The notes below the pieces were generated by a model, which saw only the letters and a program-made list of their open reading frames with translations, searched no databases and had not been told where the DNA came from. Of a stretch of DNA of 64,000 bases, positions 1-13,476 are shown piece after piece. This DNA comes from Escherichia coli. GTDB taxonomy: Bacteria > Pseudomonadota > Gammaproteobacteria > Enterobacterales > Enterobacteriaceae. The stretch's first letter is position 1. Each line of letters begins with the position of its first letter. The stretch lies in assembly GCF_003018235.1 (NCBI RefSeq), contig NZ_CP027437.1; one strand, written 5' to 3'. Made by a program: the position numbers and the translations under genes.

Positions 1-158
1 ATTTGTTCTACAATACCATATGACGCCCGATATTACGCCATACATAGAATATGACTACCTTGACCGTCAGGGTGTTTACAACGGCAGAGATAATTTATCG
101 GAAAACAGTTATCGCATTGGTGTGTCATTTAAACTGTAGTAGACAGGAGACAGTCACA

Positions 159-1265
159 ATGAATAAAACAATAACGGCGCTTGCTATCATAATGGCTTCA
201 TTTGCCGCAAACGCGTCTGTATTACCGGAAACTCCTGTGCCATTTAAAAGTGGTACCGGAGCAATTGATAACGACACTGTCTACATTGGTTTAGGTAGCG
301 CAGGTACAGCATGGTACAAGCTGGATACACAGGCCAAAGATAAAAAATGGACAGCGTTAGCTGCATTCCCTGGTGGGCCGAGAGATCAAGCAACCTCTGC
401 ATTTATTGATGGTAATCTGTATGTGTTTGGCGGCATTGGCAAAAACAGCGAGGGCTTGACTCAGGTATTTAATGACGTACACAAATACAACCCCAAAACC
501 AATAGCTGGGTTAAATTGATGTCGCACGCGCCGATGGGCATGGCGGGCCATGTGACTTTTGTACACAACGGCAAGGCTTATGTTACTGGCGGTGTTAACC
601 AGAATATCTTCAATGGCTATTTTGAAGATCTCAACGAGGCTGGAAAAGATTCAACCGCTATAGATAAAATCAACGCCCACTATTTTGACAAAAAAGCAGA
701 AGATTATTTCTTCAATAAGTTTCTGTTGTCTTTTGATCCCTCAACACAGCAATGGAGTTACGCTGGCGAATCTCCCTGGTACGGAACGGCTGGTGCGGCG
801 GTTGTGAATAAAGGTGATAAAACCTGGCTTATTAATGGCGAAGCCAAACCAGGATTGCGAACGGATGCCGTATTTGAACTTGATTTCACCGGTAATAATT
901 TAAAATGGAATAAGCTTGCTCCCGTCTCATCACCAGATGGCGTCGCTGGCGGTTTTGCAGGCATGAGCAATGACTCACTGATATTTGCCGGAGGGGCCGG
1001 ATTCAAAGGGTCACGGGAAAATTACCAAAACGGTAAGAACTATGCGCATGAAGGCCTGAAAAAATCATATAGCACTGATATTCATCTTTGGCATAACGGG
1101 AAATGGGATAAATCTGGTGAATTATCGCAAGGTCGGGCCTACGGAGTATCATTGCCCTGGAATAATAGTTTATTAATTATTGGCGGTGAAACTGCAGGCG
1201 GCAAAGCGGTGACGGATTCAGTTTTAATTTCTGTGAAGGATAATAAAGTCACAGTACAAAACTAA
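159..1265 (+). CDS. nanM: N-acetylneuraminate mutarotase NanM (YjhT), periplasmic Kelch-repeat protein
   Basis: 368-aa reading frame from ATG 159, with AGGAGA at 145-150. Signal peptide MNKTITALAIIMASFAANA. Full-length match by eye to E. coli NanM, and nanS follows as in the nanCMS operon. Confidence 0.93.
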   Translation: MNKTITALAIIMASFAANASVLPETPVPFKSGTGAIDNDTVYIGLGSAGTAWYKLDTQAKDKKWTALAAFPGGPRDQATSAFIDGNLYVFGGIGKNSEGLTQVFNDVHKYNPKTNSWVKLMSHAPMGMAGHVTFVHNGKAYVTGGVNQNIFNGYFEDLNEAGKDSTAIDKINAHYFDKKAEDYFFNKFLLSFDPSTQQWSYAGESPWYGTAGAAVVNKGDKTWLINGEAKPGLRTDAVFELDFTGNNLKWNKLAPVSSPDGVAGGFAGMSNDSLIFAGGAGFKGSRENYQNGKNYAHEGLKKSYSTDIHLWHNGKWDKSGELSQGRAYGVSLPWNNSLLIIGGETAGGKAVTDSVLISVKDNKVTVQN

Positions 1266-1329
1266 CGCTTCAGGGTCCCAGTAAAGGGGCCCTGCTATCA
1301 ATTTGTCATTTGTATTACGCGAAAATTAT

Positions 1330-2310
1330 ATGAACGCAATAATATCGCCCGATTATTACTATGTTCTTACCGTTGCTGGTCAGTCTAATGCCATGGCGTA
1401 TGGCGAAGGACTGCCATTACCGGACAGGGAAGATGCGCCTCATCCCAGAATTAAACAATTAGCGAGATTTGCGCATACGCATCCCGGAGGCCCGTCATGT
1501 CACTTTAACGACATTATTCCACTGACTCACTGCCCACACGATGTTCAGGATATGCAGGGTTATCACCATCCTCTGGCAACGAATCATCAAACACAGTACG
1601 GCACCGTTGGCCAGGCACTGCATATTGCACGGAAATTACTGCCCTTTATTCCTGATAACGCAGGGGTTCTCATCGTTCCGTGTTGCCGTGGCGGATCGGC
1701 TTTTACCGCGGGCAGCGAAGGGAAATATTCAGAACGGCACGGAGCCAGCCATGATGCTTGTCGTTGGGGAACGGATACTCCGCTATACCAGGATTTAGTC
1801 AGCAGAACGCGAGCCGCACTGGCAAAAAATCCGCAGAACAAATTCCTCGGCGTATGCTGGATGCAAGGCGAATTTGACTTAATGACCAGTGACTACGCGT
1901 CACACCCTCAACACTTTAATCATATGGTTGAAGCCTTTCGTAGGGAGCTAAAACAATACCATTCTCAGCTTAATAATATTACTGACGCACCGTGGTTTTG
2001 CGGCGATACCACCTGGTACTGGAAAGAAAATTTCCCTCATGCGTATGAAGCTATTTATGGCAATTATCAAAATAATGTTTTAGCCAATATTATTTTCGTC
2101 GACTTCCAGCAACAAGGTGCAAGAGGACTGACGAACGCGCCTGATGAAGATCCAGACGATTTAAGCACGGGATATTACGGTTCAGCGTACCGGTCACCGG
2201 AGAACTGGACGACGGCACTGCGAAGCAGTCATTTCAGCGCGGCAGCCCGTCGGGGGATTATTTCTGACAGGTTTGTAGAAGCAATTTTGCAGTTTTGGCG
2301 CGAAAGGTGA
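1330..2310 (+). CDS. nanS: 9-O-acetyl-N-acetylneuraminate esterase NanS (YjhS)
   Basis: 326 aa from ATG 1330 (MNAIISPDYYYVLTVAGQSNAMAYGEG...). SGNH-like GQSN motif. Position directly after nanM. Confidence 0.92.
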   Translation: MNAIISPDYYYVLTVAGQSNAMAYGEGLPLPDREDAPHPRIKQLARFAHTHPGGPSCHFNDIIPLTHCPHDVQDMQGYHHPLATNHQTQYGTVGQALHIARKLLPFIPDNAGVLIVPCCRGGSAFTAGSEGKYSERHGASHDACRWGTDTPLYQDLVSRTRAALAKNPQNKFLGVCWMQGEFDLMTSDYASHPQHFNHMVEAFRRELKQYHSQLNNITDAPWFCGDTTWYWKENFPHAYEAIYGNYQNNVLANIIFVDFQQQGARGLTNAPDEDPDDLSTGYYGSAYRSPENWTTALRSSHFSAAARRGIISDRFVEAILQFWRER

Positions 2311-2317
2311 GCGTTCA

Positions 2318-2518
2318 TTAATTTGATTTATTTGCATCCATTAGCGCTTTTAACTGCTCCGGCGTAAACGGTGGTTTGCGTCGGTGCAACATCGCATGGC
2401 AATTAGGGCACACAGGAAGCAAATCATTAACTGGATCCAGCTGGTAATCCTCTTTAATGGCTGAAAGCGGCACCAGGTGATGCACATTAAGCAATTTCAG
2501 AACCGCATGCTCATACAT
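2318..2518 (-). pseudogene. HNH endonuclease remnant (C-terminal HNH half only)
   Basis: 66-aa ORF with HHLVPLS...NDLLPVCPNCHAMLH, which is the second half of an HNH motif. The usual upstream Cys pair and N-terminal domain are absent and no ORF continues upstream. Its stop lies 7 nt from the nanS stop, in convergent orientation. Confidence 0.5.
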
Positions 2519-2655
2519 ATTTCCCCCTAAGTTTGCTCACTGCCTTTAATTTATGTCACAGGCAATGTAATTCACCTGAAGCTCATCTTGAATCTGTCCT
2601 TCTACTTAGTCATTACCCTACTGGCACAACCGACCTCAAGATGAGCTTCTTACTT

Positions 2656-3264
2656 TTAACGATGTATCAGAACAATCTTGCGCCGGGAGAATAGCGTTTC
2701 CGCAGACAGCTGGAATTTATATTCCGCGGCCTTCAGCTTTCGCGATTTAAGCATTTTCATCGTGATACCCCTTATTTTCCCTGACTCAACCTGTCTCTTG
2801 ATTTCGCCGGTGCTCAGCATGAGCTGCTTTTGCAAAATCGACAGCAGGCTGACCTGAAACGAACGGGAAATCCTGACGCTAACCTTGACCCATTTGCCGG
2901 GAGAAAGGCTGGCTAACCACTGCTCCTGAATGCGAAAATCAGGCCGACCCGATAGCTCTGCGTTGTTCCGCTTCAGCATCGCGATATCACAGGAAAAATG
3001 TTGAACCGTGGCTGCATCGTTGCTCATCAGCCGGTTATGAAGTTCGCGGTCAATTTTGCTGACGTGCAGGCGCGAAAATAGGGAGATATTCCAGGTGTAA
3101 TCACAGTGTGTGCATTTATAGATACTCCACACGTCCAGCACCTTCTTTTGCGAATTAATCCGAAATGCACCTGATGGCGTGAAGTCCCGTTTAATGTTGC
3201 ATGAAGGGCATCGCTTCGCAATGCGCTGATACCCCACGGGCGTGACGGTCCATGTAACTTTCAT
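2656..3264 (-). CDS. Zinc-ribbon protein, DUF1062-like (hypothetical)
   Basis: 202-aa ORF with CPSC...(31 aa)...CTHC near the N-terminus. The overall pattern resembles the DUF1062 family from memory. Not verified by search. Confidence 0.5.
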   Translation of the reverse strand: MKVTWTVTPVGYQRIAKRCPSCNIKRDFTPSGAFRINSQKKVLDVWSIYKCTHCDYTWNISLFSRLHVSKIDRELHNRLMSNDAATVQHFSCDIAMLKRNNAELSGRPDFRIQEQWLASLSPGKWVKVSVRISRSFQVSLLSILQKQLMLSTGEIKRQVESGKIRGITMKMLKSRKLKAAEYKFQLSAETLFSRRKIVLIHR

Positions 3265-3559
3265 AACCTACCTTTTTTAACCCATACAAAACCGGATCCG
3301 TACTGAACGGACCATGGATGTTTATGTATGAAAAATATTTAAGAGATATTTTTCAGAGGGTTAAAAAAAGATTTCCAACTATGCAATCCTGTCGGTGAGC
3401 AAAGAGATATAGCGAGACTATCAAAACGGCAATTATTGGGTATATGAGTTCAATCAATATTCATGATGGTTATGGCTTGTTCTATTGATCTGACACATTA
3501 AACACGGCGCATTAATTTTGTATGTTTTATGAACAACCCAACAACAAAAGGAGCGCGAT

Positions 3560-3811
3560 ATGACACAGCACGAACGGTTTTGTCAGGCCTGCGGAATGCC
3601 GATGTCCGCACCTGATGCGCAGGGGAGTAGCGATAAATACTGTGCATACTGCAGCGATAGCAACGGCAATCTTAAACCCTGGGAAGAGGCGGTATCAGGC
3701 TTGGCCAGCTTCCTTGATTCCTGGCAAAAAGTCGGTCCAGAAGAAGCACAGAAGCGTGCAAAACGTTATCTGACGGCAATGCCTGCCTGGGCTCATAAAG
3801 CGGACGAGTGA
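3560..3811 (+). CDS. Small zinc-ribbon domain protein (hypothetical)
   Basis: 83-aa ORF with AAGGAG at 3548-3553 upstream of the ATG. Motif CQACGMP...CAYCSD gives four Cys in a zinc-ribbon arrangement. Confidence 0.6.
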   Translation: MTQHERFCQACGMPMSAPDAQGSSDKYCAYCSDSNGNLKPWEEAVSGLASFLDSWQKVGPEEAQKRAKRYLTAMPAWAHKADE

Positions 3812-3875
3812 ATAACAAAGTCAGGGTGATTTAGGCAGTCTATCTTCACTCCGCTGATTCCATTAAGGAGAGCCG

Positions 3876-4267
3876 ATGTTTTCTCACATTATGCTTGGAA
3901 CCAACAACCTGCCACGCGCCATTGCATTCTACGATCCGTTGATGGATATGCTGGGGTATCCCCGCGGCGGCAGGAAGAGGAGATCGCATGGTGGGGCGTT
4001 TTCAACGGTAATAACACTACGGCACTGGGTATCAGTAGGCCATTTGATAAACAGGTTGCCACGACCCGAAATGGAGTGATGGTCGCCCTGATTGCGCGTT
4101 CTGCCGAACACATCCAGCAAGTTTCATGTGCTAGCTTTAAATCACGGTGGCACTGACGAGGGAGCACCTGGCCAGCGTCCGCATTACGGCGAAGGGTTCT
4201 ACAGCGCTTACGTCAGAGACACCGATGGCAACAAGCTGGCTTACGTTTATTACACCGCACAATCCTG
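3876..4267 (+). pseudogene. VOC/glyoxalase-family protein gene disrupted by two frameshifts
   Basis: Start MFSHIMLGTNNLPRAIAFYDPLMDMLGYP is in frame 1. The middle (EEIAWWGVFNGNNTTALGISRPFDKQVATTRNGVMVALIARSAEHIQQV) is in another frame. The end (HVLALNHGGTDEGAPGQRPHYGEGFYSAYVRDTDGNKLAYVYYTAQS*) is in a third frame. Shifts lie near 3960-3972 and near 4121 (extra T in caagttTcat). Confidence 0.8.
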
Positions 4268-4512
4268 AGAACGATAAAGCGGGGGCCTCAGCGCCCCCAC
4301 CTGAAACTAAACCGATCCCGCAGATGTCAATGAGCGTTGAACGAGTTGATAAATGCCGAGATGTCTGACTGTTTTTACGCCAGAACTCCATGGTGTGACA
4401 ACCATACACATACTCCCTTCTTGACACCTTTAAACCATTTAACCGCATGCCTCTGTCTGCCCTGCAGGGACGGCTGATGCCTGTGTGTTGTCTGGCGGTA
4501 AGGAACAATACT

Positions 4513-4674
4513 ATGTACGCAAAATCCTTTATCGCTCTCGACGGGAATGGTCGTCTGACCGGTGCCCGTACTGCGCAGACCGCCCCTTACGATCGTTATA
4601 CCTGCCACCTCTGCGGTAGCGTGCTGCAATACCATCCTGAATACATCACCGAACGCCCGTGCTTTGAACAGTAA
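4513..4674 (+). pseudogene. Short zinc-ribbon ORF, probably the N-terminal remnant of a longer gene
   Basis: 53 aa from ATG 4513 (AAGGA upstream). YTCHLCGSVLQYHPEY...CFEQ* looks like a CxxC...(H) N-terminal module. Downstream sequence is broken across frames. Confidence 0.3.
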
Positions 4675-5266
4675 CCAACACACTGACAGAGGGCGGCGAA
4701 AATGCTTTATGCAAATCTTGATGCAAAGGCAGCCAGACGAATTCGTAAGTTACGCTTTTACGTGGCAGATACTCAAAGCAGACTGGCATTGTAGCGACGA
4801 TTGCCACGGTGAACGCTATTGTATGGCATGTAGTACCTGAGACTTCAGCCGCCCAGTAGATATAGCATCATGAAAAAACTGAAATGCTTTCTTGCCAACA
4901 ACTCACTGAGCTAGTATGCCTCCACCGATGTAACAATTAGAGCAAGCGTCAAAGTGCGAAACTGCCCTCACGTAGCTGCAAGTTAACACCAGGAAATCCT
5001 GGTTCAAACACGACCAGCTCTATGTTAGCGGCAAGCAATCGTTGAACTAAACGCATATGCAGCCGGAGATGAAAGTTAGGAAAAAAGCAGAGGCTGATAA
5101 GAATTATGCACGTTGAGCTGGGATCGTAATACCCCACTTAAAATGTACAAGGGGAGTAGTCTAATGATGTTAAATACGAACCTTCAGTATTGTTCATTCA
5201 CCAATTTTCCCATATTCTCTCATCATTAATATTCTCTGCCGAATTTTATAGGGCTAACTCGCTGAA

Positions 5267-5473
5267 ATGAATGACAAAGCTTTAACCTTGAAAGATGTGG
5301 TGGCTTACTTAAAGTTGGCAGAAAAAACAGCGTATAGGTTGACTAGCGAAGGCAAATTGCCGGGATTTAAGGTTGAAGGCTCATGACGCTTCAAACGAGA
5401 GGATTTAGATATGTGGATTGAAGGTCAGAAGACTCAAAGCTACCCGAGTATCACAAAATCCAATCGTGGTTGA
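5267..5473 (+). pseudogene. Excisionase/MerR-type helix-turn-helix (HTH_17-like) gene with an in-frame TGA
   Basis: MNDKALTLKDVVAYLKLAEKTAYRLTSEGKLPGFKVEGS*RFKREDLDMWIEGQ.... The stop at 5384-5386 occupies the position of the conserved Trp (G-x-WRF motif), which fits a TGG->TGA change. Confidence 0.7.
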
Positions 5474-5666
5474 TCAAGTGGATAAACATGAAAAGTCGGT
5501 AGCCCTCAAAGGCCACTTGCCACATGCAGTGAAGCAAGCCGTTGTGCAAGCTCTACTGAAAGAAGGTGATATCGCCCGAACGTTGCTCAAGGATCCACAA
5601 GTTATGGCAAGTTATGTTGAGCTGATTTTCGACATGATGAAGCAGAATAAAAATATGAATATCTAA
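5418..5666 (+). CDS. Hypothetical 82-aa ORF (non-ATG start), overlapping the tail of the HTH pseudogene
   Basis: ORF track only. TTG start, no recognisable motif. Could be the frameshifted C-terminus of the upstream HTH gene. Confidence 0.2.
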   Translation: MKVRRLKATRVSQNPIVVDQVDKHEKSVALKGHLPHAVKQAVVQALLKEGDIARTLLKDPQVMASYVELIFDMMKQNKNMNI

Positions 5667-5708
5667 AAGATTTTGGGCTATCTATTACGTTTTAAAATGA
5701 GATAAATA

Positions 5709-8246
5709 ATGATAAATGACCATGAAGAACTAGAACTTGCTAAAGCTCAGGCAAAAGAAATATGGAAGATCCTTGATTATGTTCGAGGAGCATCACCTAT
5801 ATCTAATTATCGCTCATTAGCGTATTCAATCTTCTTCGTACGCTATCTTCAATCCAATACAGGTCAGCATTTTGAGGCAGAAAGGTTCGACTCTTTTAAT
5901 GTCATCGCCCAGTATTCCTACGATCTTGTAAACTATGCCGTTCAACTTGGATTGATTCATAGCGACGTATCTAAATTCTTAATTTATTATTTAGAAAACA
6001 CACTCCGTTCATTTGTCAATATTGATGAGTCTTTTGTTCGTTATGCAATTAGAGATGGTCTACTCAATAAAACCCCTGCAATAGCGTCGCTTTCTTTATC
6101 AGAACTGGATTTACTTTTTGCCGAGAATGAAGGTAAGTCAGGAGGTGAGTTTTATACCCCTAGAGACGTCAACTTATTGGTTAAAATATTAGGATTGAGT
6201 TATCAACCAAAGTCAATATGTGACCCATTTGCAGGTGCTGGAAACACAGCATTTCCTTTTGCCAATACTGGTATTGAAAAAGTTAGGATTGATACTCAAG
6301 AAATTAATAGAGATGCTTACTTTAAACTAGTAATAAGTAGAGTCATCAGGAAAATAGAAGGTCGAGACTATTTCGGCGATTCCCTATCACAACCATTATA
6401 TCAAGAAAATAAATATGATCTGATAGTTTCTTTCCCACCTTTTGGCATGAAAATTCCTAAAGCCACTCGAAATAATATTTACTATAAAACAAGTAATAAG
6501 TGGCTGGATATTACTGAAATCTTGCCAGAAAGTAGAAGTGATTGGTTTATAACATTATCAATGCTTCCAGCCCTTTCTGAGGGGGGTAAGATACTAGTAG
6601 GTATGTCACTTGGGGCTTTGACAAGAGCAGGCTCTGAGGCAAAGGTTCGTGAGTATTTAGTCTCTCGCGGAATTATCGAACAAGTAATTCTTTTACCTAA
6701 AAATATTTATTACTCTACGGCTATCTCAACTGTACTTCTTGTCCTCAACTCAGGAACAAGTAACATAAATAACAGAAGTATTAAATTTGTAGATGCTTCA
6801 CTGTTTTACGAGCCTGCCCGTGGTCGAAACACCCTCACAACAAAAAATATAAATGAGATCGTAGAGGCTTGTCATAAAGATGGCCGATTTAGTATTAGTT
6901 CATCTCATACCCAAATAGCAAACAGAGACTTTAATTTAGATCCGTCTCTTTATGTACGTAAAGATCTCAAAATCAGTGAGGTTTCTTTAAAAAATTTTAG
7001 AGGATACTCTGACTTTAAAGTTTCGATACATCCTTCTTTAAATGTATTGGTTGGTGAGAACGGCGTCGGGAAAACTTCGATATTAGAAGCATTAGCATGT
7101 GGCCTTGGTCCTTTCCTTACTGCTATGCCTGATGCTAAAGGAAAACTGATAAAAAAATCAGATATCCATATAAGTTCAAAAGGAATCGCAAATTATGCTC
7201 GAATATCGATTGAAACAACATCAAGTTTAAGTTGGGATCTTGTGGCAAAGGGGGTTGATGTTTCCGAGCCCCCTAAGATAGGAACATCAGCATTAACTAG
7301 CTACGCTACTCATCTTGTAGATAGTCAGTCTGAATATCCACTCATTGCTTATTATGGGACTAACCGTGCTCTTACTTCTACCAGTTCTAAAGTTGCAATA
7401 AATCCATTCGAGAAAGAAAATCGTGGGGAAGGTTATGACTTTGCTTTAGATGCTAAAGTTAACTACGGCATCTTAAAGAACTGGTTTTCAAAAATAGAGG
7501 TTGATGAGCTTCGAAAACGTGATGAACTAAAAGACCATAAATTCATTCATCCGGCTAAGAGACTTGTTTCAGAGGCTGTTTACCAGATTGTTGATCGAGC
7601 TACATGCTTGGAGTTCGACAAAAATAGTAACGATGTTATGGTTCATTGGAAAAATGAGCAGGGAGAGTGCGTAAAGCTTACATTGGAACAACTAAGTGAA
7701 GGGTATAGAAATATGGTATCCCTGACCATTGACCTAGTGAGGCGTGCTTATTTACTTAATCCTACCAAACCGAAACCGCTAACAGTTAATGGGATCGTTT
7801 TAATTGATGAAATTGAACTTCACTTGCACCCTAGATGGCAGCAAAAGATTTTAAATGATCTTACTAAGCTGTTTAAGAATATTCAGTTTATTGTCACGAC
7901 ACATAGTCCTCAAGTCTTAACAACAATCAAAGCCGATTGTATCCGTATTGTTTCCGTCAATGCTAACGAAGCAAAATTAGTGACAGGAACTACTACTTAC
8001 GGTTCTGAAAGCTCAAGAATGTTGGAAGATGTTTTAGGTGGTAACAATCGCGCCCAACATCTTGATATTGTTAAAAAACTAAACCGTTATACAGAGTTAG
8101 TAGAGGCCGACAAATGGGATACCGATGAGGCATTAGAACTCAAAAAAGAGTTATATAAATGGGGTGGTCAGACAGAAGACGAGCTTCAAAAATTAGAAAC
8201 TGATATTCGAATTCGCGAGTTCGAGCGTGGCAATGAAAAAGATTAA
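5709..8246 (+). CDS. Fusion protein: HsdM-like N6-adenine DNA methyltransferase domain + PtuA-type (AAA_15/21, ABC/OLD-like) ATPase
   Basis: 845 aa. The N-terminal ~415 aa carry an HsdM_N-like start (IWKILDYVRG...YRSLAYSIFFVRYL), GGEFYTPRDV (6141-6170), motif I DPFAGAGN (6222-6245), the motif IV position SFPPFG (6429-6446) and ILLPKNIYYSTAISTVLLVLN. The C-terminal ~425 aa carry LKNFRGY, Walker A GENGVGKT (7053-7076), LSEGYRNM, Walker B IVLIDEIELHLHP (7794-7832) and IVTTHSP. Confidence 0.8.
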   Translation: MINDHEELELAKAQAKEIWKILDYVRGASPISNYRSLAYSIFFVRYLQSNTGQHFEAERFDSFNVIAQYSYDLVNYAVQLGLIHSDVSKFLIYYLENTLRSFVNIDESFVRYAIRDGLLNKTPAIASLSLSELDLLFAENEGKSGGEFYTPRDVNLLVKILGLSYQPKSICDPFAGAGNTAFPFANTGIEKVRIDTQEINRDAYFKLVISRVIRKIEGRDYFGDSLSQPLYQENKYDLIVSFPPFGMKIPKATRNNIYYKTSNKWLDITEILPESRSDWFITLSMLPALSEGGKILVGMSLGALTRAGSEAKVREYLVSRGIIEQVILLPKNIYYSTAISTVLLVLNSGTSNINNRSIKFVDASLFYEPARGRNTLTTKNINEIVEACHKDGRFSISSSHTQIANRDFNLDPSLYVRKDLKISEVSLKNFRGYSDFKVSIHPSLNVLVGENGVGKTSILEALACGLGPFLTAMPDAKGKLIKKSDIHISSKGIANYARISIETTSSLSWDLVAKGVDVSEPPKIGTSALTSYATHLVDSQSEYPLIAYYGTNRALTSTSSKVAINPFEKENRGEGYDFALDAKVNYGILKNWFSKIEVDELRKRDELKDHKFIHPAKRLVSEAVYQIVDRATCLEFDKNSNDVMVHWKNEQGECVKLTLEQLSEGYRNMVSLTIDLVRRAYLLNPTKPKPLTVNGIVLIDEIELHLHPRWQQKILNDLTKLFKNIQFIVTTHSPQVLTTIKADCIRIVSVNANEAKLVTGTTTYGSESSRMLEDVLGGNNRAQHLDIVKKLNRYTELVEADKWDTDEALELKKELYKWGGQTEDELQKLETDIRIREFERGNEKD

Positions 8247-9021
8247 TAAGCTAGATGAGCCAAATCGGCTTGGTGTGTTCAAGGCTACTCATCCTAATGC
8301 TTTGTGGGAGAGGGATAAAAACTCAATTGAAGAGGCTTTCCGTTGTTGCATTGCCAGATATCAAGAAACTCTACAACAATTACGTACGGACCAAGGTAAT
8401 TTATGTGCATATTGTGAACAGGATTTAATGTCTGGAACTAATGGGGCATTAGATGACTGCCGTATTGAGCATTTTCATCCGAAATCTAAACGTGAACAGG
8501 GAGAACCTAATTGGGCTTTGGAATGGAGCAATTTGTTAGTTGTTTGCTGTGGCGGAAATCAAAGTAAAGTTGTTAATCCTGGGCAAAGATTTGATGCTGA
8601 TCCCAAAAATTACTCTTGCGATGTACCAAAGAGTGACAAAATTTTAGATACCATTATATTAAATCCACTTAATTTACCTGAATTAAATATCTGGAAGTTT
8701 CATCGTTCTTCGGGGCAAATTTCCGTAAATGAAGATTCCTGTTTAGAATTTGGTATAAGTGTTGAAATGGCACACCAAACAATTAAAGAATTGAATTTAA
8801 ATTCCCCTCGATTAATTAGATTTCGAAAGGCTATTCTAAATAATCTCAACATTTTAATAACAGAAAGGCTGAAGAAGGGACAAACGGTAGAGCAAGCTGT
8901 TAGATTTATTGCCATATCACTCTTTAGAAAAAATGGAGCAGGTGATTGGCCCTCTTTTTTTAGTGCAACACGATATTATTTAGGTCAGCAGGCTGAGCTT
9001 GTTTTAGCCCAACCTATTTAA
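8233..9021 (+). CDS. PtuB-type HNH nuclease (TIGR02646-like)
   Basis: 262 aa from ATG 8233 (GTG 8227 also possible). Overlaps the stop of the upstream gene by 14 nt. Motifs CAYCEQ (8404-), CRIEHFHPKS (8467- for EHFH), EWSNLLVVCCGG and SCDVPKSDK follow the CxxC...EHxxPK...NL..aC order typical of Septu and retron-Ec78 PtuB. Confidence 0.75.
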   Translation: MKKINKLDEPNRLGVFKATHPNALWERDKNSIEEAFRCCIARYQETLQQLRTDQGNLCAYCEQDLMSGTNGALDDCRIEHFHPKSKREQGEPNWALEWSNLLVVCCGGNQSKVVNPGQRFDADPKNYSCDVPKSDKILDTIILNPLNLPELNIWKFHRSSGQISVNEDSCLEFGISVEMAHQTIKELNLNSPRLIRFRKAILNNLNILITERLKKGQTVEQAVRFIAISLFRKNGAGDWPSFFSATRYYLGQQAELVLAQPI

Positions 9022-9040
9022 CATACTTTCAACTAGTTAG

Positions 9041-9063
9041 AGAGGCTGCTTTTGGCAGCCTCT
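9041..9063. terminator. Hairpin between convergent operons (putative bidirectional terminator)
   Basis: agaggctgc-ttttg-gcagcctct forms a 9-bp stem. It sits between the + strand stop at 9021 and the - strand stop at 9082. Confidence 0.55.
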
Positions 9064-9081
9064 TGCAGAGTGCAGAATCGA

Positions 9082-10515
9082 CTACAGGGGCGATGCTAGC
9101 TCAGAGAACCAAGCGTGAACTGATCTGTAAAATGTGCTGATTGACCAAAACTCACTGCATGCAGCAACTAACAGAATGACCACTAAGAGGATCACTACAG
9201 TAGAAGTCATTCTTTCCACACGGCAGTATGATCCCATCGCATCTTTTACAGGTTGTCTAGCCAGTTCCTGATAATCCAGCTCATCCAGAAATCCGTATAA
9301 TTTAGTTCTCCAGGTGGTTCTAACTCTTTCAAGTAATGAAATTGTTTGCCTATTAATATAGACAGACATTCCATAGGAAATAACTATATAAACCGCGATA
9401 GCACAAAAAACCAAAGCGTAAATATTTTGCAAACCAACTGATTTTACTGCATCCAGACTGTAGCGAATAACCAAGACACTAATTACAAGAGCCATATCTT
9501 TCCATAAGGAAGAGGACAAATCTCGGGATTGCTGAATGATCTTTTGTGTATCTTCAGCCAGCGTTTTCCGCAAATCACCCAAGGATTTCATAGTATCTTT
9601 ACCACCAGTCCTGATATGGGCCTTATACATTAACCGTGCAGACTCCAAAGCTGATGAGAGTCGAAGCATCACTCCCTCACAAAAGTTCAGGTCTGAAGGC
9701 CACTCTCTAGCCAGCTCGCTGGACAAAAACGTATGTTTCAGCTCAGTTTCATTCCCCTCTAGAAAAATCCACTTTGCCGCTTCCTGGATAATATCAAAAG
9801 CAGGTAACGCTGCCGTCTCATCGCCGAATGCTATTTTTCTGGGAGGCTTTCCCGCAAGCCCCACCATCATTTCGTCAGCAAAAAAAAGTTCATTTGCAAA
9901 ACATTTCAGCAACTCTCGGCATCCTAGCAATTTCCATATCTTGATTGCTTCATCAGTCTTCTCACTACAAGTTTCAAGTATCCAAGGGGCAATGGCATCT
10001 GGAGGAAGAAAAGTTGTTGAATAACATTTGATGATACTTTTTGTTACTGAAGGCTTAGTGATAGCTGTTGCATCACCAGCACTCACCGGCTGTATCTCCT
10101 TCCATGGATGCACATACCAACTTATTGTCTGAAAGCCTTCAGTAATAAACAGCCCATAAATATGTTTGTACCGACAGAGTTTGCTATCTTGAAGTAAAAA
10201 AGTGCGCCATCCTTCTAAGGTAAAAAGCCTCAGTATCCCCGGAATTTCATTATAAGTGATGGTAATGTAGTGCTTCTGCCCTGGGACCCCCTCTCTCGGA
10301 TGAATAACATCTCTGCTCTCATCGATAAAAACGATCTTGAGATCTTCCGCATGTACATCCACTATTTCTCCCCATAAATCAAGGGATTCACTATCCATTG
10401 TGGCGGAAATAAAAAGCTTATGGATAGACACCTGCTGGTCCTCTGTGATCACAAGGTCAGATAAATGTCGTGAGTGGCATATAGCCTTACCGATTTTTTC
10501 CAATATCGATATCAT
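9082..10515 (-). CDS. Hypothetical 477-aa protein with C-terminal transmembrane helices
   Basis: Long AT-rich ORF. The soluble N-terminal ~330 aa show no motif I recognise. The C-terminal ~140 aa hold hydrophobic segments MALVISVLVI, IYALVFCAIAVYIVISYGMSVYI and STVVILLVVILLVAACSEFW. The start ATG overlaps the upstream gene by 29 nt. Confidence 0.6.
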   Translation of the reverse strand: MISILEKIGKAICHSRHLSDLVITEDQQVSIHKLFISATMDSESLDLWGEIVDVHAEDLKIVFIDESRDVIHPREGVPGQKHYITITYNEIPGILRLFTLEGWRTFLLQDSKLCRYKHIYGLFITEGFQTISWYVHPWKEIQPVSAGDATAITKPSVTKSIIKCYSTTFLPPDAIAPWILETCSEKTDEAIKIWKLLGCRELLKCFANELFFADEMMVGLAGKPPRKIAFGDETAALPAFDIIQEAAKWIFLEGNETELKHTFLSSELAREWPSDLNFCEGVMLRLSSALESARLMYKAHIRTGGKDTMKSLGDLRKTLAEDTQKIIQQSRDLSSSLWKDMALVISVLVIRYSLDAVKSVGLQNIYALVFCAIAVYIVISYGMSVYINRQTISLLERVRTTWRTKLYGFLDELDYQELARQPVKDAMGSYCRVERMTSTVVILLVVILLVAACSEFWSISTFYRSVHAWFSELASPL

Positions 10516-11548
10516 CTGTTACCAATCCTGCAGTCACAATTACAATTCGTTTTCGCCCGTCTTCCATATTTTCTACTTCTGGTGCATTGTCTTCATCGTA
10601 GATAATGATTACATCTTCCAATGTTTCCAGTTTTCTCTTCCGGGGCTTCTGAATGTTATCGGGAATGATGCGGAAAGATTCACCTGAAATTCCTAAATCC
10701 TTTATTTTACGAAAAAAATACTTAACCAGAGGGTGTTCTTCCTCCAAAGGACCAAAAATCTGGGTCAACAATGGCAGTGCTTCATCAGTATTAAAATCCT
10801 GTTCGCCATGGCGTAAAGTTTCATAAATTTTGTTTACTCCGCTGCGCTTGATCTCTTCAGGTAGTAAGTTTCGATGCTTTTTATATACATCTTTTAATAC
10901 AGTAACTAGCTTATCGCTGAGCTGAGTTGGGTCATTGACGCGCTTAACCTGTAGAAATCGTTCAAAATAGACAGAGATGTTAGTACGTTTGCTGCGATCT
11001 CGTACGACAACTAATCCGCCCGGCAAATCTTCATTCAGCCGTACCAGTGCGATTTTCTGCATGGCTTCGGCTTTTTTAACGAAACTTTCGCGAAAGCGTT
11101 CGAGTTTAGGTACCTGAAACTCATCTCCTTCAACATCCAGCACATAACGGACTACATCTTCATTGTCATACTTAATCAACGCATACAGTTTCTCATCGTT
11201 GAGTGTATGAAGTTCAAAAAGGAAAAAAACGCCCATACTGGCATTCTTGGTATGGTGGTGAGACTGAAAATCGCTTGCCAATAAGGAGGATTGCTCAGTA
11301 AAGCAGCCGATATCGGTGTCTGCATGTTCCCTGATGATCCTCAGGATTCGCTCTGTATTTGACAACTCCTTAAAATGAAACATATTGCCACTAACTGCAG
11401 ATTTGATACGTTCCAGAAAGAAATCAACATGCTCCGGAGGGGAAATTTCGCTGAGTAAAACAGGGACTTCCAACTCACCGCCAACCACATGAAAAATCAT
11501 CCTTTTTATTGATAATGCATTGATTTCTTCATCCGTTAAAAAACTCAT
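10487..11548 (-). CDS. YejK/NA37-like nucleoid-associated-protein family member (hypothetical)
   Basis: 353 aa. Motif order resembles the NdpA/YejK family: IKRMIFHVVG near the N-terminus, MGVFFLFEL...KLYALIKYD, QKIALVRLNED and VVVRDRSKRTNISVYFERFLQV. Assigned by eye only. Confidence 0.5.
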   Translation of the reverse strand: MSFLTDEEINALSIKRMIFHVVGGELEVPVLLSEISPPEHVDFFLERIKSAVSGNMFHFKELSNTERILRIIREHADTDIGCFTEQSSLLASDFQSHHHTKNASMGVFFLFELHTLNDEKLYALIKYDNEDVVRYVLDVEGDEFQVPKLERFRESFVKKAEAMQKIALVRLNEDLPGGLVVVRDRSKRTNISVYFERFLQVKRVNDPTQLSDKLVTVLKDVYKKHRNLLPEEIKRSGVNKIYETLRHGEQDFNTDEALPLLTQIFGPLEEEHPLVKYFFRKIKDLGISGESFRIIPDNIQKPRKRKLETLEDVIIIYDEDNAPEVENMEDGRKRIVIVTAGLVTDDIDIGKNR

Positions 11549-11744
11549 TTTTATTTCTCAATATAGTGTTTATATTTACTACCGTGAGCCATCTTACCTA
11601 AGCGTAGAACGTGGCGGAAAACACGATAACATTATTGCATAGCTTACGGCGTAACTTATCCTCGCCCCAGACAGAATAAACGTCAAAATAAAATAATGAA
11701 AATATGATCGAGACAGCATTAGCTGCCCCGCTTTCTTAGACTTT

Positions 11745-12998
11745 TTACATTATTAGGGCAAAATCAAACGGACTCACCCCCTTCTCCCGATTCGCATCCA
11801 GATAATTTGCCCACCACTGCAGCATCAACCTACGCTCCCCAAGATGTTCCGCCTTATGGATGTATGCCGCCCGCACAGAGCTACGCTCCTGATGGCTCAT
11901 CTGCCGCTCCACTGCATTCCTCGACCACAATCCTGATTCAATAAGTGAACTACAGGCCATCGTCCTGAAACCATGCCCACAGACTTCCGTTTTGGTGTCA
12001 TAGCCCATAACTCGCAAAGCCTTGTTCACCGTATTCTCACTCATCGGCTTATGCGGATCGTGATCGCCCACAAAAATCAGCTCTCGATTTCCATTCATGC
12101 TTTTGATCTTTTCCAAAATAGCTAAGGCCTGCCGCGATAAGGGTACAAGATGGGGAGTTCGCATCTTCGAACCACGCTGAGAATGTTTAACACCGTCCAA
12201 CGGTTCACGCTCACCGGGGATCGTCCACATGGCCGTTTCAAAATCCACTTCTGACCAACGGGCAAAGCGCAGTTCGCTTGAACGGATGAAAACTAACAAA
12301 GTGAGTTCGACAGCCAGTCGAGTTAACGGCCTGCCGGAGTAATGATCAATGCGGTGAAGTAATTCAGGTATGCGGTTAAGCTCCAGAGCCGCACGATGCT
12401 GTCTTTTAGCAGTAGCAACCGCACCGGTAATCTCTTGCGCGGGGTTGTAGTCGATTAAGCCGCTCTGAACGGCAAAGCGCATAATCGCGGTAGTTCGCTG
12501 CTGTAAACGGGCGGCGACTTCAAGACGTCCGGATGACTCCACCGCTTTAATGGGTACAAGAAGATCCCGAGTCTTAAGCTCTGCAATGTTCCGCTTACCG
12601 ATAGCAGCAAAGAGATTATCTTCTAGGCTTTTCAATACACGAGCACTATGCGATGCAGACCACTTCTGATTACTGGCATGCCAGTCTCTGACGACCACTT
12701 CAAACGTTATCGCCTCTTGCTCCTGTTCTACCTTAACCGCTTTCTTGTTTTCACTGGGATCGACGCCGTTCGCTAAAAGCTTACGCGCTTCGTCTCGCCG
12801 CGATCGAGCATCAGCTAACGAAACTTCAGGATACTTCCCTAGCGCCAGCATCTTCTCTTTACCACCGAAACGATAACGAAGCCGCCAGTATTTGGAGCCG
12901 TTAGGGTGAACCAGCAAAACCATGCCTTCACCATCAGTAAGTTTATAGGCTTTTGCTTCAGGCTTTGCCGAACGAACCTTCACATCACTCAGAGCCAT
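11745..12998 (-). CDS. intB: P4-type tyrosine integrase (IntB-like)
   Basis: 417 aa from ATG 12998 (MALSDVKVRSAKPEAKAYKLTDGEGM...YWRLRYRFGGKEKMLALGKYP). C-terminal catalytic region contains HGFR...R...Y. Directly adjacent to leuX. Confidence 0.9.
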   Translation of the reverse strand: MALSDVKVRSAKPEAKAYKLTDGEGMVLLVHPNGSKYWRLRYRFGGKEKMLALGKYPEVSLADARSRRDEARKLLANGVDPSENKKAVKVEQEQEAITFEVVVRDWHASNQKWSASHSARVLKSLEDNLFAAIGKRNIAELKTRDLLVPIKAVESSGRLEVAARLQQRTTAIMRFAVQSGLIDYNPAQEITGAVATAKRQHRAALELNRIPELLHRIDHYSGRPLTRLAVELTLLVFIRSSELRFARWSEVDFETAMWTIPGEREPLDGVKHSQRGSKMRTPHLVPLSRQALAILEKIKSMNGNRELIFVGDHDPHKPMSENTVNKALRVMGYDTKTEVCGHGFRTMACSSLIESGLWSRNAVERQMSHQERSSVRAAYIHKAEHLGERRLMLQWWANYLDANREKGVSPFDFALIM

Positions 12999-13158
12999 GA
13001 TGAATATCCTTTCAAGGGTTCTGTGTGGGTACAAACATTATCGAACCGGGATATACCCGCAGTTGTACCCGCATCAGTAAGTTGATGTAGATTGAATCAG
13101 GTTGACTTAGGTTGAGTGAAAAAGCGAGGAAAGCCTTGCGGATACTGGATTTCAGGCA

Positions 13159-13183
13159 TAAAAAAAGACCTCAGTTGAGGTCT
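13159..13183 (-). terminator. leuX rho-independent terminator
   Basis: On the minus strand, agacctcaactgaggtct forms a hairpin followed by a T-run (the A-run at 13159-13166 on the plus strand). Confidence 0.7.
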
Positions 13184-13196
13184 ATTTACATACTTA

Positions 13197-13281
13197 TGGT
13201 GCCGAAGGCCGGACTCGAACCGGCACGTATTTCTACGGTTGATTTTGAATCAACTGCGTCTACCGATTTCGCCACTTCGGC
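13197..13281 (-). tRNA. leuX: tRNA-Leu(CAA)
   Basis: The reverse complement reads GCCGAAGTGGCGAAATCGGTAGACGCAGTTGATTCAAAATCAACCGTAGAAATACGTGCCGGTTCGAGTCCGGCCTTCGGCACCA. It has a CAA anticodon loop, a long variable arm and an encoded CCA. Confidence 0.97.
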
Positions 13282-13476
13282 ACTGAAGAGGTATGCGGAA
13301 AACGTTGTGGATTATACCTGTCGCACGCCACCATGCAAGCGCCAGCTTGCTCGCACCTCGCTAAGTGCTGAAATTTTCAGCATTGCATACAGTGATGTGT
13401 AACCTTTGTCACACTCCAGGCACCCCGCCCTGCCATGCTCTACACTTCCCAGACAACACCAGAGAAGGACCAAAAA

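Follow-up and report, generated by a model that had tools for sequence, protein, structure and literature searches.

In the window, by which we mean the whole 64,000-nucleotide stretch of Escherichia coli DNA that was analysed, two AT-rich genes lie head to tail on the minus strand and form an operon. The upstream, pagA-like gene (gene 1; 10487..11548) is a 353-aa ORF that starts at an ATG and encodes a nucleoid-associated protein (NAP) of the YejK/NA37 family, the presumed sensor; the downstream, pagB-like gene (gene 2; 9082..10515) is a 477-aa ORF, also from an ATG, whose product, the presumed effector, combines a soluble N-terminal domain, a helical stalk and C-terminal membrane helices. 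By their ORF coordinates the two genes overlap out of frame by 29 nt (10487..10515, minus strand), an arrangement indicative of translational coupling: the TAA stop of gene 1 (10489-10487) lies 29 nt within gene 2, whose ATG occupies 10515-10513. Both ORFs are exactly as the first-pass annotation had described them, and its remark on their AT-richness holds as well, with a GC content of 0.40-0.43 here versus 0.50-0.56 in the flanking core genes.

The start of gene 2 deserves comment, as the RefSeq/PGAP model has the protein begin at a GTG at 10431, which yields 449 aa and no overlap. The 477-aa start is preferable, because the N-terminus that it restores (MxSILxKIxxAIxxSR...E25) is conserved in a 40-sequence alignment and because PGAP's own call in the prophage variant is the overlapping 477-aa form. 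RefSeq names the gene 1 product "nucleoid-associated protein" and the gene 2 product, with its truncated start, "hypothetical protein". Homologues fall into 115 clusters for the former and 93 for the latter, and both are thus real genes and not chance ORFs.

The operon is flanked by two hairpins. On its downstream side, a perfect hairpin at 9041..9063 (9-bp stem AGAGGCTGC / GCAGCCTCT, 5-nt loop) stands between the stop codons of two convergent operons and separates them, as had been noted; it is possibly a bidirectional terminator that lacks a T-tract, and it is missing from the terminator scan because it has no T-run. On the upstream side, an intergenic region of 196 nt (11549..11744, minus strand) contains a terminator-like hairpin directly past the integrase stop (11730-11709; 9 pairs followed by a T-rich tail in the terminator scan). 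Presumably the operon's own promoter also lies within 11549..11744; a consensus scan returned no minus-strand sigma-70 match upstream of gene 1.

The YejK-like protein and its membrane partner

Gene 1 encodes a bona fide NA37/YejK-family protein. The motif order on which this assignment was originally based (IKRMIFHVVG, MGVFFLFEL..KLYALIKYD, QKIALVR and VVVRDRSKR..SVYFERFLQV) is present in full in the translation, and the homology is borne out by profile search as well as by fold. The Pfam family PF04245 matches with an E-value of 1.3e-12 and 48.3 bits (cut-off 24.6) over residues 20-337, which correspond to positions 3-317 of the 325-position profile, and nearly all of the 115 homologue clusters carry a precomputed PF04245 annotation. 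The AF2 model (pLDDT 85.4) has a single significant match in the PDB, E. coli YejK (NdpA; 9BE2), with an E-value of 8.7e-9, a probability of 1.00 and 349 aligned columns; sequence and profile searches of the PDB returned no relative. The two proteins share the Pfam family and the overall full-length fold, but when structurally aligned they are only 14% identical, and the TM-score of 0.38-0.40 suggests that their domains are arranged differently. They also differ in genetic setting: YejK is encoded by a core gene that stands alone, and the gene 1 NAP is always operonic with a transmembrane (TM) partner and resides on mobile elements. Among the PHROGs, gene 1 matches phrog_1974, a family of unknown function (E 1.2e-4). 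Its overall pI of 5.5 is uninformative on the predicted, sequence-nonspecific binding to chromosomal DNA or association with the nucleoid.

The 477-aa partner had been described as a protein without any recognizable motif, and so it appears in every collection that we searched. It matches no Pfam family at E <= 1, SLATT models and RelA/SpoT-like domains included; it has no match in NCBIfam, no PADLOC model and no relative in sequence and profile searches of the PDB, and Foldseek with its AF2 model (pLDDT 83.6) returned nothing from the PDB at E <= 1e-3. Fold-search matches of the model were not accepted as homology, an integrase fragment that surfaced in the PDB sequence searches (E 0.014) was discarded as chance level, and the partner's match at E 0.16 in the PADLOC, NCBIfam and PHROGs scans is meaningless.

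Its architecture can nonetheless be traced from the N-terminus to the last membrane segment, all on the minus strand. Residues 1-270 (9706..10515) form one or more mildly acidic alpha/beta domains according to the AF2 secondary structure. The region ahead of the membrane, residues 1-335, has a net charge of -9 and a pI of 5.6 (family medians -8 and 5.33); residues 41-80 (net -8) and 241-280 (net -6) stand out as acidic patches. Residues 257-341 (9493..9747) are the most conserved stretch of the alignment, with a mean majority-residue frequency of 0.72-0.73 versus 0.43-0.51 in the N-terminal domain; they comprise the motif HTFLSxELAREW and the long pre-membrane helix ALESARLLYKAHLRSGSKDTLKAL.DLRKTLADDVQK..QQSRDLSS..WKD. 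In the AF2 model, helices span residues 257-269, 278-304 and 306-356 and, after a break at 357-362, residues 363-406.

The stalk leads into a membrane hairpin (residues 342-385; 9361..9490), in which a weaker, amphipathic segment (342-360; Kyte-Doolittle 19-residue maximum 1.55) is followed by a turn at about 357-362 and a strongly hydrophobic segment (367-385; 2.22). A charged loop (residues 388-435; 9211..9354) follows, with the invariant or near-invariant columns W402 R403.K405 L406 Y407 ..L410 D411 ..D414 Y415 ..L418 A419 ..P422 and a median of 8 K+R per 50 residues across the family; by the topology that we infer, this loop is probably cytoplasmic. The last and strongest transmembrane segment (residues 436-454; 9154..9210; 2.64) contains no charged residue and leaves a tail of only about 23-32 aa. 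Both strong maxima recur in 40/40 family members. The two or three strongly hydrophobic C-terminal helices that had been read from the sequence are thereby recovered as Kyte-Doolittle maxima and as long AF2 helices, and by hydropathy the partner is membrane-anchored through two to three C-terminal TM helices.

Conservation of the pair and its genomic settings

The two genes form a real and widely conserved two-gene module, and their pairing is obligate. In 18/18 examined loci, which represent 12 distinct contexts and range over Enterobacteria, alpha- and beta-proteobacteria, plasmids, lambdoid prophages and a Mu-like phage, an NA37 gene lies directly upstream of the partner gene and overlaps it by 11-38 nt, an arrangement that E. 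coli shares with Bosea, Pseudomonas and a Rhodobacteraceae phage. For 25 NAP clusters, the longest contig is the same as that of a partner cluster, and a search of genome contigs with a single protein located 3 close loci. The pairwise identities of NAP and partner correlate with r = 0.84 (0/2000 Mantel permutations as high), a co-divergence that is to be read as co-inheritance and not as proof of physical binding. Co-conservation across genomes, which the first-pass annotation had proposed as a check on its reading, is therefore established by both the arrangement and the co-divergence. The partner family itself is large: a profile search gathered 644 clusters at 50% identity, reaching across Pseudomonadota, plasmids and temperate phages.

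The settings of these loci are mobile and often, though not uniformly, defensive. In the window, the operon adjoins a P4-type integrase at tRNA-Leu, on a leuX-integrated island, and a Septu-like system (MTase-PtuA plus PtuB), which bears out the earlier description of a defence-type island beside an integrase; a search for the island's att repeat found no copy of the leuX 3′ end within the window. Elsewhere, the pair neighbours a different Septu and a type I REase in Dryocola, and a CBASS cyclase and a patatin in Bosea. In lambdoid prophages of Yersinia and of 30/5426 E. coli genomes, it occupies the slot beside the Q antiterminator gene; it also adjoins the CI/Cro repressor gene in the Mu-like phage vB_ThpS-P1 and is found on 10 plasmids; one homologous locus adjoins a HipA-type module. 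About half of the sampled contexts have no known defence gene nearby.

Relation to known systems and rival explanations

Lambda RexA/RexB and other two-gene abortive infection (Abi) systems that are encoded on prophages or islands follow a comparable plan: DNA states brought about by infection are sensed in the cytoplasm, and the sensor activates a membrane protein that depolarises the cell. The present pair differs from them in that the sensor is a nucleoid-associated protein, and no homology was seen, as neither protein has a PADLOC match. More generally, scans of both proteins against PADLOC (PADLOC-DB v2) found no model at E <= 1, and those against NCBIfam and PHROGs found no match to a defence model.

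The closest counterpart is PANGU type II, an E. coli operon of a YejK-like protein, Pag2A, and a TM protein, Pag2B, which was described in April 2026 (bioRxiv 10.64898/2026.04.06.716658). It lowers T4 plaquing by 3-4 logs, requires both genes, neither of which is toxic alone, and displays Abi kinetics with growth arrest at high MOI; Pag2A-GFP departs from the nucleoid upon T4 infection, and the Pag2B N-domain binds Pag2A with a KD of 19 nM (bioRxiv 10.64898/2026.04.06.716658). In the general PANGU scheme, the NAP detaches from the degraded nucleoid to engage the effector, and so acts as an activator and not as an inhibitor, a mechanism that was worked out for type I by cryo-EM, ChIP-seq, EMSA and T4 EndoII escape mutants (bioRxiv 10.64898/2026.04.06.716658). 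PANGU operons were delineated by a YejK-like NAP with a minimum length of 300 aa and by gaps of less than 40 bp between neighbouring genes; here, the NAP has 353 aa and shares 29 nt with its partner gene. As in type II, the NAP gene comes first and the partner second, the latter with a soluble domain at its N-terminus and TM segments at its C-terminus (residues 342-360, 367-385 and 436-454 by hydropathy). In type II the soluble domain is an acidic, DNA-mimicking (DMK) one that binds the NAP; its counterpart here is only mildly acidic (net -9 over 335 residues), which counts against the match. Occurrence in E. coli, a wide distribution and linkage to restriction-modification (RM) and other defence genes are likewise common to both, the linkage being to the Septu-like system here and to Septu plus type I RM and to CBASS in two other contexts. 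The likeness to Pag2A/Pag2B that we draw on is one of gene order and architecture. PANGU type I, which couples Pag1A to the GRel toxSAS Pag1B, has the YejK-like sensor family and the release-from-nucleoid logic in common with what we propose, but Pag1B is a soluble alarmone synthetase, whereas the partner here is membrane-anchored and has no RelA/SpoT-like domain.

A second NAP-TM pair with validated anti-phage activity in E. coli is DefensePredictor DS-1 (D390; WP_000355468.1 + WP_000150292.1; Science 2026, PMC13092281). It too is a two-gene unit with the YejK-domain protein first, followed by a protein of ~400 aa whose soluble N-domain is mildly acidic (net -9) and whose C-terminus holds hydrophobic helices. 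We considered and dropped membership in DS-1, since four tests detected no homology between the partner and DS-1B (WP_000150292.1): BLASTP (E > 4), profile against sequence (probability 0.07%), a 207-sequence HMM (-0.1 bits) and hhalign of the two family profiles (probability 0.56%). The sensors diverge as well; DS-1A has 391 aa and an N-terminal zinc ribbon ahead of NA37, whereas gene 1 has no ribbon, its NA37 match beginning at residue 20, and BLASTP detected no similarity between the two. Given PANGU type II and DS-1, which both have the NAP-plus-TM make-up, the initial remark that no defence system of this composition was known by name is out of date.

What, then, does the pair do? The reading that we prefer, with a probability of roughly 60%, is that it is a PANGU-type-II-like Abi module on a leuX-integrated island, by analogy with the systems above. 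The first-pass annotation had already proposed this logic of a nucleoid sensor and a membrane effector in abortive infection, and PANGU type II demonstrates it by experiment for operons of the NAP-plus-TM kind. We consider it unlikely that the pair is primarily a toxin-antitoxin-like addiction module, in which the 477-aa protein would be a membrane toxin restrained by the NAP and serve mainly to stabilise its island, prophage or plasmid. Residence on exactly such elements, the tight coupling of the two genes and the one locus beside a HipA-type module would all suit such a role; the upstream gene, however, encodes no small antitoxin but a larger, more conserved and non-labile-looking NAP of 353 aa, and in PANGU the single-gene constructs are non-toxic and the NAP activates. 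A toxin-antitoxin role would not preclude one in Abi.

An accessory function apart from Abi is in our judgement improbable, be it a DNA-membrane tether of the nucleoid or the element, or superinfection exclusion or a block to DNA entry without cell killing. It would account for a DNA-binding protein paired with an inner-membrane protein and for the slots beside the prophage Q antiterminator gene and the Mu-like repressor gene, where exclusion genes such as sieB also occur, but the closest studied analogue exhibits high-MOI growth arrest and a NAP that comes off the DNA instead of tethering it, and the partner, with its short tail after the last TM segment, has no sizeable periplasmic domain with which to meet an injection apparatus. 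One could also take the pair for neighbours without a functional link, a NAP of the xenogeneic-silencer type on an island that happens to lie beside an unrelated membrane protein, since standalone YejK-like NAPs are common (about half of 1.6 million; bioRxiv 10.64898/2026.04.06.716658). This notion is effectively refuted by the conservation data, namely the overlap kept in 18/18 loci, with E. coli, Bosea, Pseudomonas and the Rhodobacteraceae phage among them, and the co-divergence of the two proteins (r = 0.84), and we regard it as very improbable.

A candidate mechanism and its implications

On the PANGU-type-II-like reading, the YejK-like protein would be sequestered on chromosomal DNA in the uninfected cell and released when a phage degrades the host chromosome. 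Once free, it would bind the partner's N-terminal domain in the cytoplasm, and the signal would run via the highly conserved helical stalk to the two or three membrane helices. These may then oligomerise or form a pore and thereby impair the inner membrane, with loss of the membrane potential, so that the infected cell would halt ahead of phage progeny production. Release-from-nucleoid sensing, NAP-effector binding and the Abi phenotype are taken here from the literature on analogous systems; that this family would behave in the same way, and that its effector would act via membrane disruption, we infer from that analogy.

Because it matches the kind of system that PANGU type II represents, the locus is probably a defence system but not a new concept; the idea of a NAP as a genome-integrity sentinel that triggers Abi by way of a TM partner has been published before, and the added value of the present pair is to that extent incremental. 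If functional, it would be a defence system absent from current catalogues, as reflected in the lack of a PADLOC v2 model. YejK-like sensors in Enterobacteria pair with at least two sequence-unrelated TM partners, which bears on the modularity of such immunity.

More tentatively, and at somewhat less than even odds, the 477-aa protein may be the founder of a separate membrane-effector family, homologous to neither Pag2B nor DS-1B and independently recruited by YejK-like sensors. Should this be the case, at least three unrelated TM effectors would have converged on one nucleoid-integrity sensor, and temperate phages would carry the module for lysogen protection. The signature of the family would be the hyper-conserved cytoplasmic three-helix stalk, HTFLSxELAREW ... 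YKAHLRSGSKDTLKAL.DLRK ... WR.KLY.FLD..DY, coupling NAP binding to a 3-TM bundle. An alignment-backed family of 644 clusters can serve the least understood step of NAP-based immunity, that is, how a released YejK-like sensor switches on its membrane effector, and the sharply conserved motifs of the stalk and the loop provide concrete targets for mutagenesis.

Gene model and products of the operon

The gene for the nucleoid-associated protein (NAP; 353 aa, 10487..11548, minus strand) and that for its putative membrane partner (477 aa, 9082..10515, minus strand) are both called as ORFs from ATG, at exactly the positions and lengths proposed in the first-pass annotation, and the stop codon of the former lies 29 nt within the latter. 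The region has a GC content of 0.40–0.43, against at least 0.50 in the flanking core genes. The hairpin previously noticed at 9041-9063, where this operon and the convergent one meet, indeed has a perfect 9-bp stem and a 5-nt loop; it carries no T-tract and is absent from the terminator scan output. RefSeq gives the partner as a 449-aa protein (WP_158709056.1) that starts from GTG at 10431 without overlap, a choice that removes 28 N-terminal residues (10432-10515, minus strand) and masks the gene overlap. Because residues 1–28 are conserved in a 40-sequence alignment, with E25 invariant, and because PGAP itself assigns an overlapping 477-aa form to a related prophage variant, the longer model, as originally called, is correct rather than the 449-aa one; other gene callers likewise return 477 aa.

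All of the motifs first quoted for the 353-aa protein recur in its translation, and its suspected NA37 homology holds. It matches Pfam NA37 (PF04245) over nearly the whole profile (E 1.3e-12; 48.3 bits, where the gathering score is 24.6), and its AF2 model, built on 37 homologues (pLDDT 85.4), finds a single significant PDB match, E. coli YejK (9BE2; E 8.7e-9, 349 columns, 14% identity). By these two lines of evidence, the protein is a divergent yet genuine member of the YejK family.

The partner, in which no motif had been recognized, has no match in Pfam, NCBIfam or PADLOC and no sequence relatives in the PDB. Of the two or three hydrophobic C-terminal helices initially described, hydropathy analysis recovers two strong TM-like segments (367–385 and 436–454), present in 40/40 aligned partners, and a weaker amphipathic one at 342–360. 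The AF2 model (pLDDT 83.6) places one or more alpha/beta N-terminal domains up to about residue 270, followed by long helices at 278–304, 306–356, 363–406, 412–456 and 459–474; fold searches with it return generic helical bundles only, and the N-domain is without a significant match. Taking together the predicted helix breaks, the hydropathy and a 50-residue loop rich in K/R (median 8 K+R), the most economical reading of the topology would be an N-domain and a three-helix stalk, both cytoplasmic, followed by three membrane-embedded segments. Conservation peaks in the pre-membrane stalk (257–341), above both the N-domain and the TM helices, with majority-residue frequencies of 0.72–0.73 versus 0.43–0.51 in the N-domain. 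The family is large, comprising 644 clusters at 50% identity in a profile search (372 with E <= 1e-30), and its clear conserved motifs bear on the unsolved step of effector activation. Among the members of the 90%-identity cluster that one partner fragment (P0047) represents are 352-aa "nucleoid-associated protein" sequences, which looks like a clustering artefact, and its "386 members" should therefore not be taken as partner copies alone.

Pairing and genomic settings

The two genes form a true pair, as their co-conservation attests. In each of the 18 loci (12 different genomic contexts) where the sequence extends upstream of a partner homologue, the gene directly before it is an NA37 gene, with an overlap of 11–38 nt. 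The hosts span Klebsiella, Dryocola, Pseudescherichia, Citrobacter/Enterobacteriaceae, Yersinia, Pantoea, Bosea, Methylocaldum, Pseudomonas mandelii, two metagenomic lineages, an E. coli prophage and a Rhodobacteraceae phage. For 25 NAP clusters, the longest contig is also that of a partner cluster, and over 26 matched pairs the pairwise identities of NAP and partner are correlated (r = 0.84, a value reached by 0/2000 permutations), the NAP always being the more conserved. Two copies are interrupted, either by decay or by assembly errors: the NAP gene of a Methylocaldum-type contig (L013, 6982-8035) is split into ORFs of 177 and 193 aa, and the partner gene of a Pseudescherichia MAG (L004, 8001-9432) is also split.

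The proposed defence-type surroundings hold for this locus, where the pair neighbors a Septu-like system; it is adjoined by a different Septu and a type I restriction enzyme in Dryocola, by a CBASS cyclase–patatin pair and an AbiJ-like gene in Bosea, and by a HipA module in Pseudomonas. Several contexts hold no known defence gene nearby. Ten plasmids carry the pair. In lambdoid prophages of Yersinia and of 30/5426 complete E. coli genomes, it occupies a slot beside the gene for antiterminator Q. This Rac-like/lambdoid variant, about 40% identical and on the opposite strand, is found in E. coli 13E0767 (L018, 3880-6343), in Yersinia enterocolitica, where it sits between Q and a holin gene (L015, 6971-9500), and in a further locus (L005); 815 contigs of the protein collection encode its NAP. 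The pair is also borne by an isolated temperate Mu-like phage, Thiobacimonas phage vB_ThpS-P1 (KT381864.1; L019, 545-3011), next to a CI/Cro repressor gene. The NAP gene of this phage is under-annotated (281 aa versus a 350-aa ORF), and its product falls below Pfam NA37 detection yet aligns to the NAP subfamily profile with an hhalign probability of 99.8% (E 2e-29).

Relation to known systems and proposed function

PANGU operons, described in an April 2026 preprint, employ a YejK-like NAP as infection sensor (bioRxiv 10.64898/2026.04.06.716658). In type I, whose mechanism has been established, the NAP is freed by chromosome degradation and goes on to bind and activate the effector, and a DNA-binding-dead NAP renders the system toxic. 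In type II, the NAP is Pag2A and its partner a TM protein, Pag2B, whose acidic N-terminal "DNA-mimicking" domain precedes a C-terminal TM domain. One E. coli type II operon lowers T4 plaquing by 3–4 logs with abortive-infection kinetics, both genes being required and single genes non-toxic; on infection Pag2A-GFP departs the nucleoid, and the N-domain of Pag2B has an affinity of 19 nM for Pag2A (bioRxiv 10.64898/2026.04.06.716658). On the architecture described for type II, our pair shares with it the NAP family and length, the operon structure, the C-terminal TM partner and the defence linkage. Set against the acidic domain of Pag2B, partner residues 1–335 are mildly acidic by total charge (net −9, pI 5.6; family medians −8 and 5.33).

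A second, independently validated E. coli system, DS-1, joins a YejK-domain protein (DS-1A) to a 404-aa TM protein, DS-1B (DefensePredictor, Science 2026, PMC13092281). Both partner families have a soluble N-domain of ~275–335 aa with a net charge near −9, followed by TM, a loop of ~50–70 residues and TM; DS-1A has a zinc ribbon, which the NAP here lacks. Neither BLASTP nor HMM nor profile–profile comparison relates our partner to DS-1B, and Enterobacteria thus carry, at the sequence level, at least two unrelated NAP+TM pairings, which points to multiple independent TM partners of YejK-like NAPs.

The best explanation of the pair, to which we give a probability of roughly 60%, is an abortive-infection system resembling PANGU type II. 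Its anatomy, pairing and context are observed here, and the sensing logic comes from the published systems. By this analogy, the NAP would be held on the nucleoid until genome degradation by a phage frees it to bind the cytoplasmic N-domain of the partner; the conserved stalk may then relay the signal to the TM bundle, which, we infer, would damage the membrane. A TA-like addiction module is an unlikely alternative reading of the same two genes, and a non-lethal role in exclusion or tethering is slightly more doubtful still, while the idea that NAP and partner are unrelated neighbors is effectively refuted by the conservation data. The abortive-infection reading upholds the sensor-plus-effector proposal of the first-pass annotation but not its novelty: the NAP-sensor concept is already published (PANGU) and will therefore not surprise a specialist. 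The locus is probably a functional, unannotated defence locus.

The island in E. coli

Of 5426 complete E. coli genomes, only 2 carry the identical 2.75 kb. The integrase reported beside the pair is of P4 type (11745..13034) and abuts tRNA-Leu(CAA) (13197-13281). No further match to the tRNA-Leu 3′ end turned up in 1-13400 with a 25-nt probe allowing <=3 mismatches; the distal att site of the island is therefore missing, degenerate or beyond the stretch analyzed. Left of ~5000, the gene spacing is unlike that of strain CFSAN018748, which has an IS3 element there.

The convergent Septu-like neighbor (5709-9021, plus strand; PADLOC) encodes an 845-aa protein in which an N6 DNA methyltransferase domain (PF02384, residues 137–418) is fused N-terminally to a PtuA-type ATPase (residues 420–843, PADLOC E 5e-106), an unusual fusion, followed by a 264-aa PtuB HNH protein (PADLOC E 2e-100). 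Their RefSeq names are "N-6 DNA methylase" and "retron system putative HNH endonuclease"; the annotation shows no reverse transcriptase near these genes. The pair has the same Septu-like module for a neighbor in Klebsiella sp. MISC125 (L002) and the Pseudescherichia MAG (L004). Just upstream of the fusion gene, in an area to which RefSeq assigns small HTH and hypothetical genes, an 82-aa ORF (5418-5666, plus strand) weakly matches the last 70 residues of the PADLOC candidate PDC-S15 (E 4e-6).
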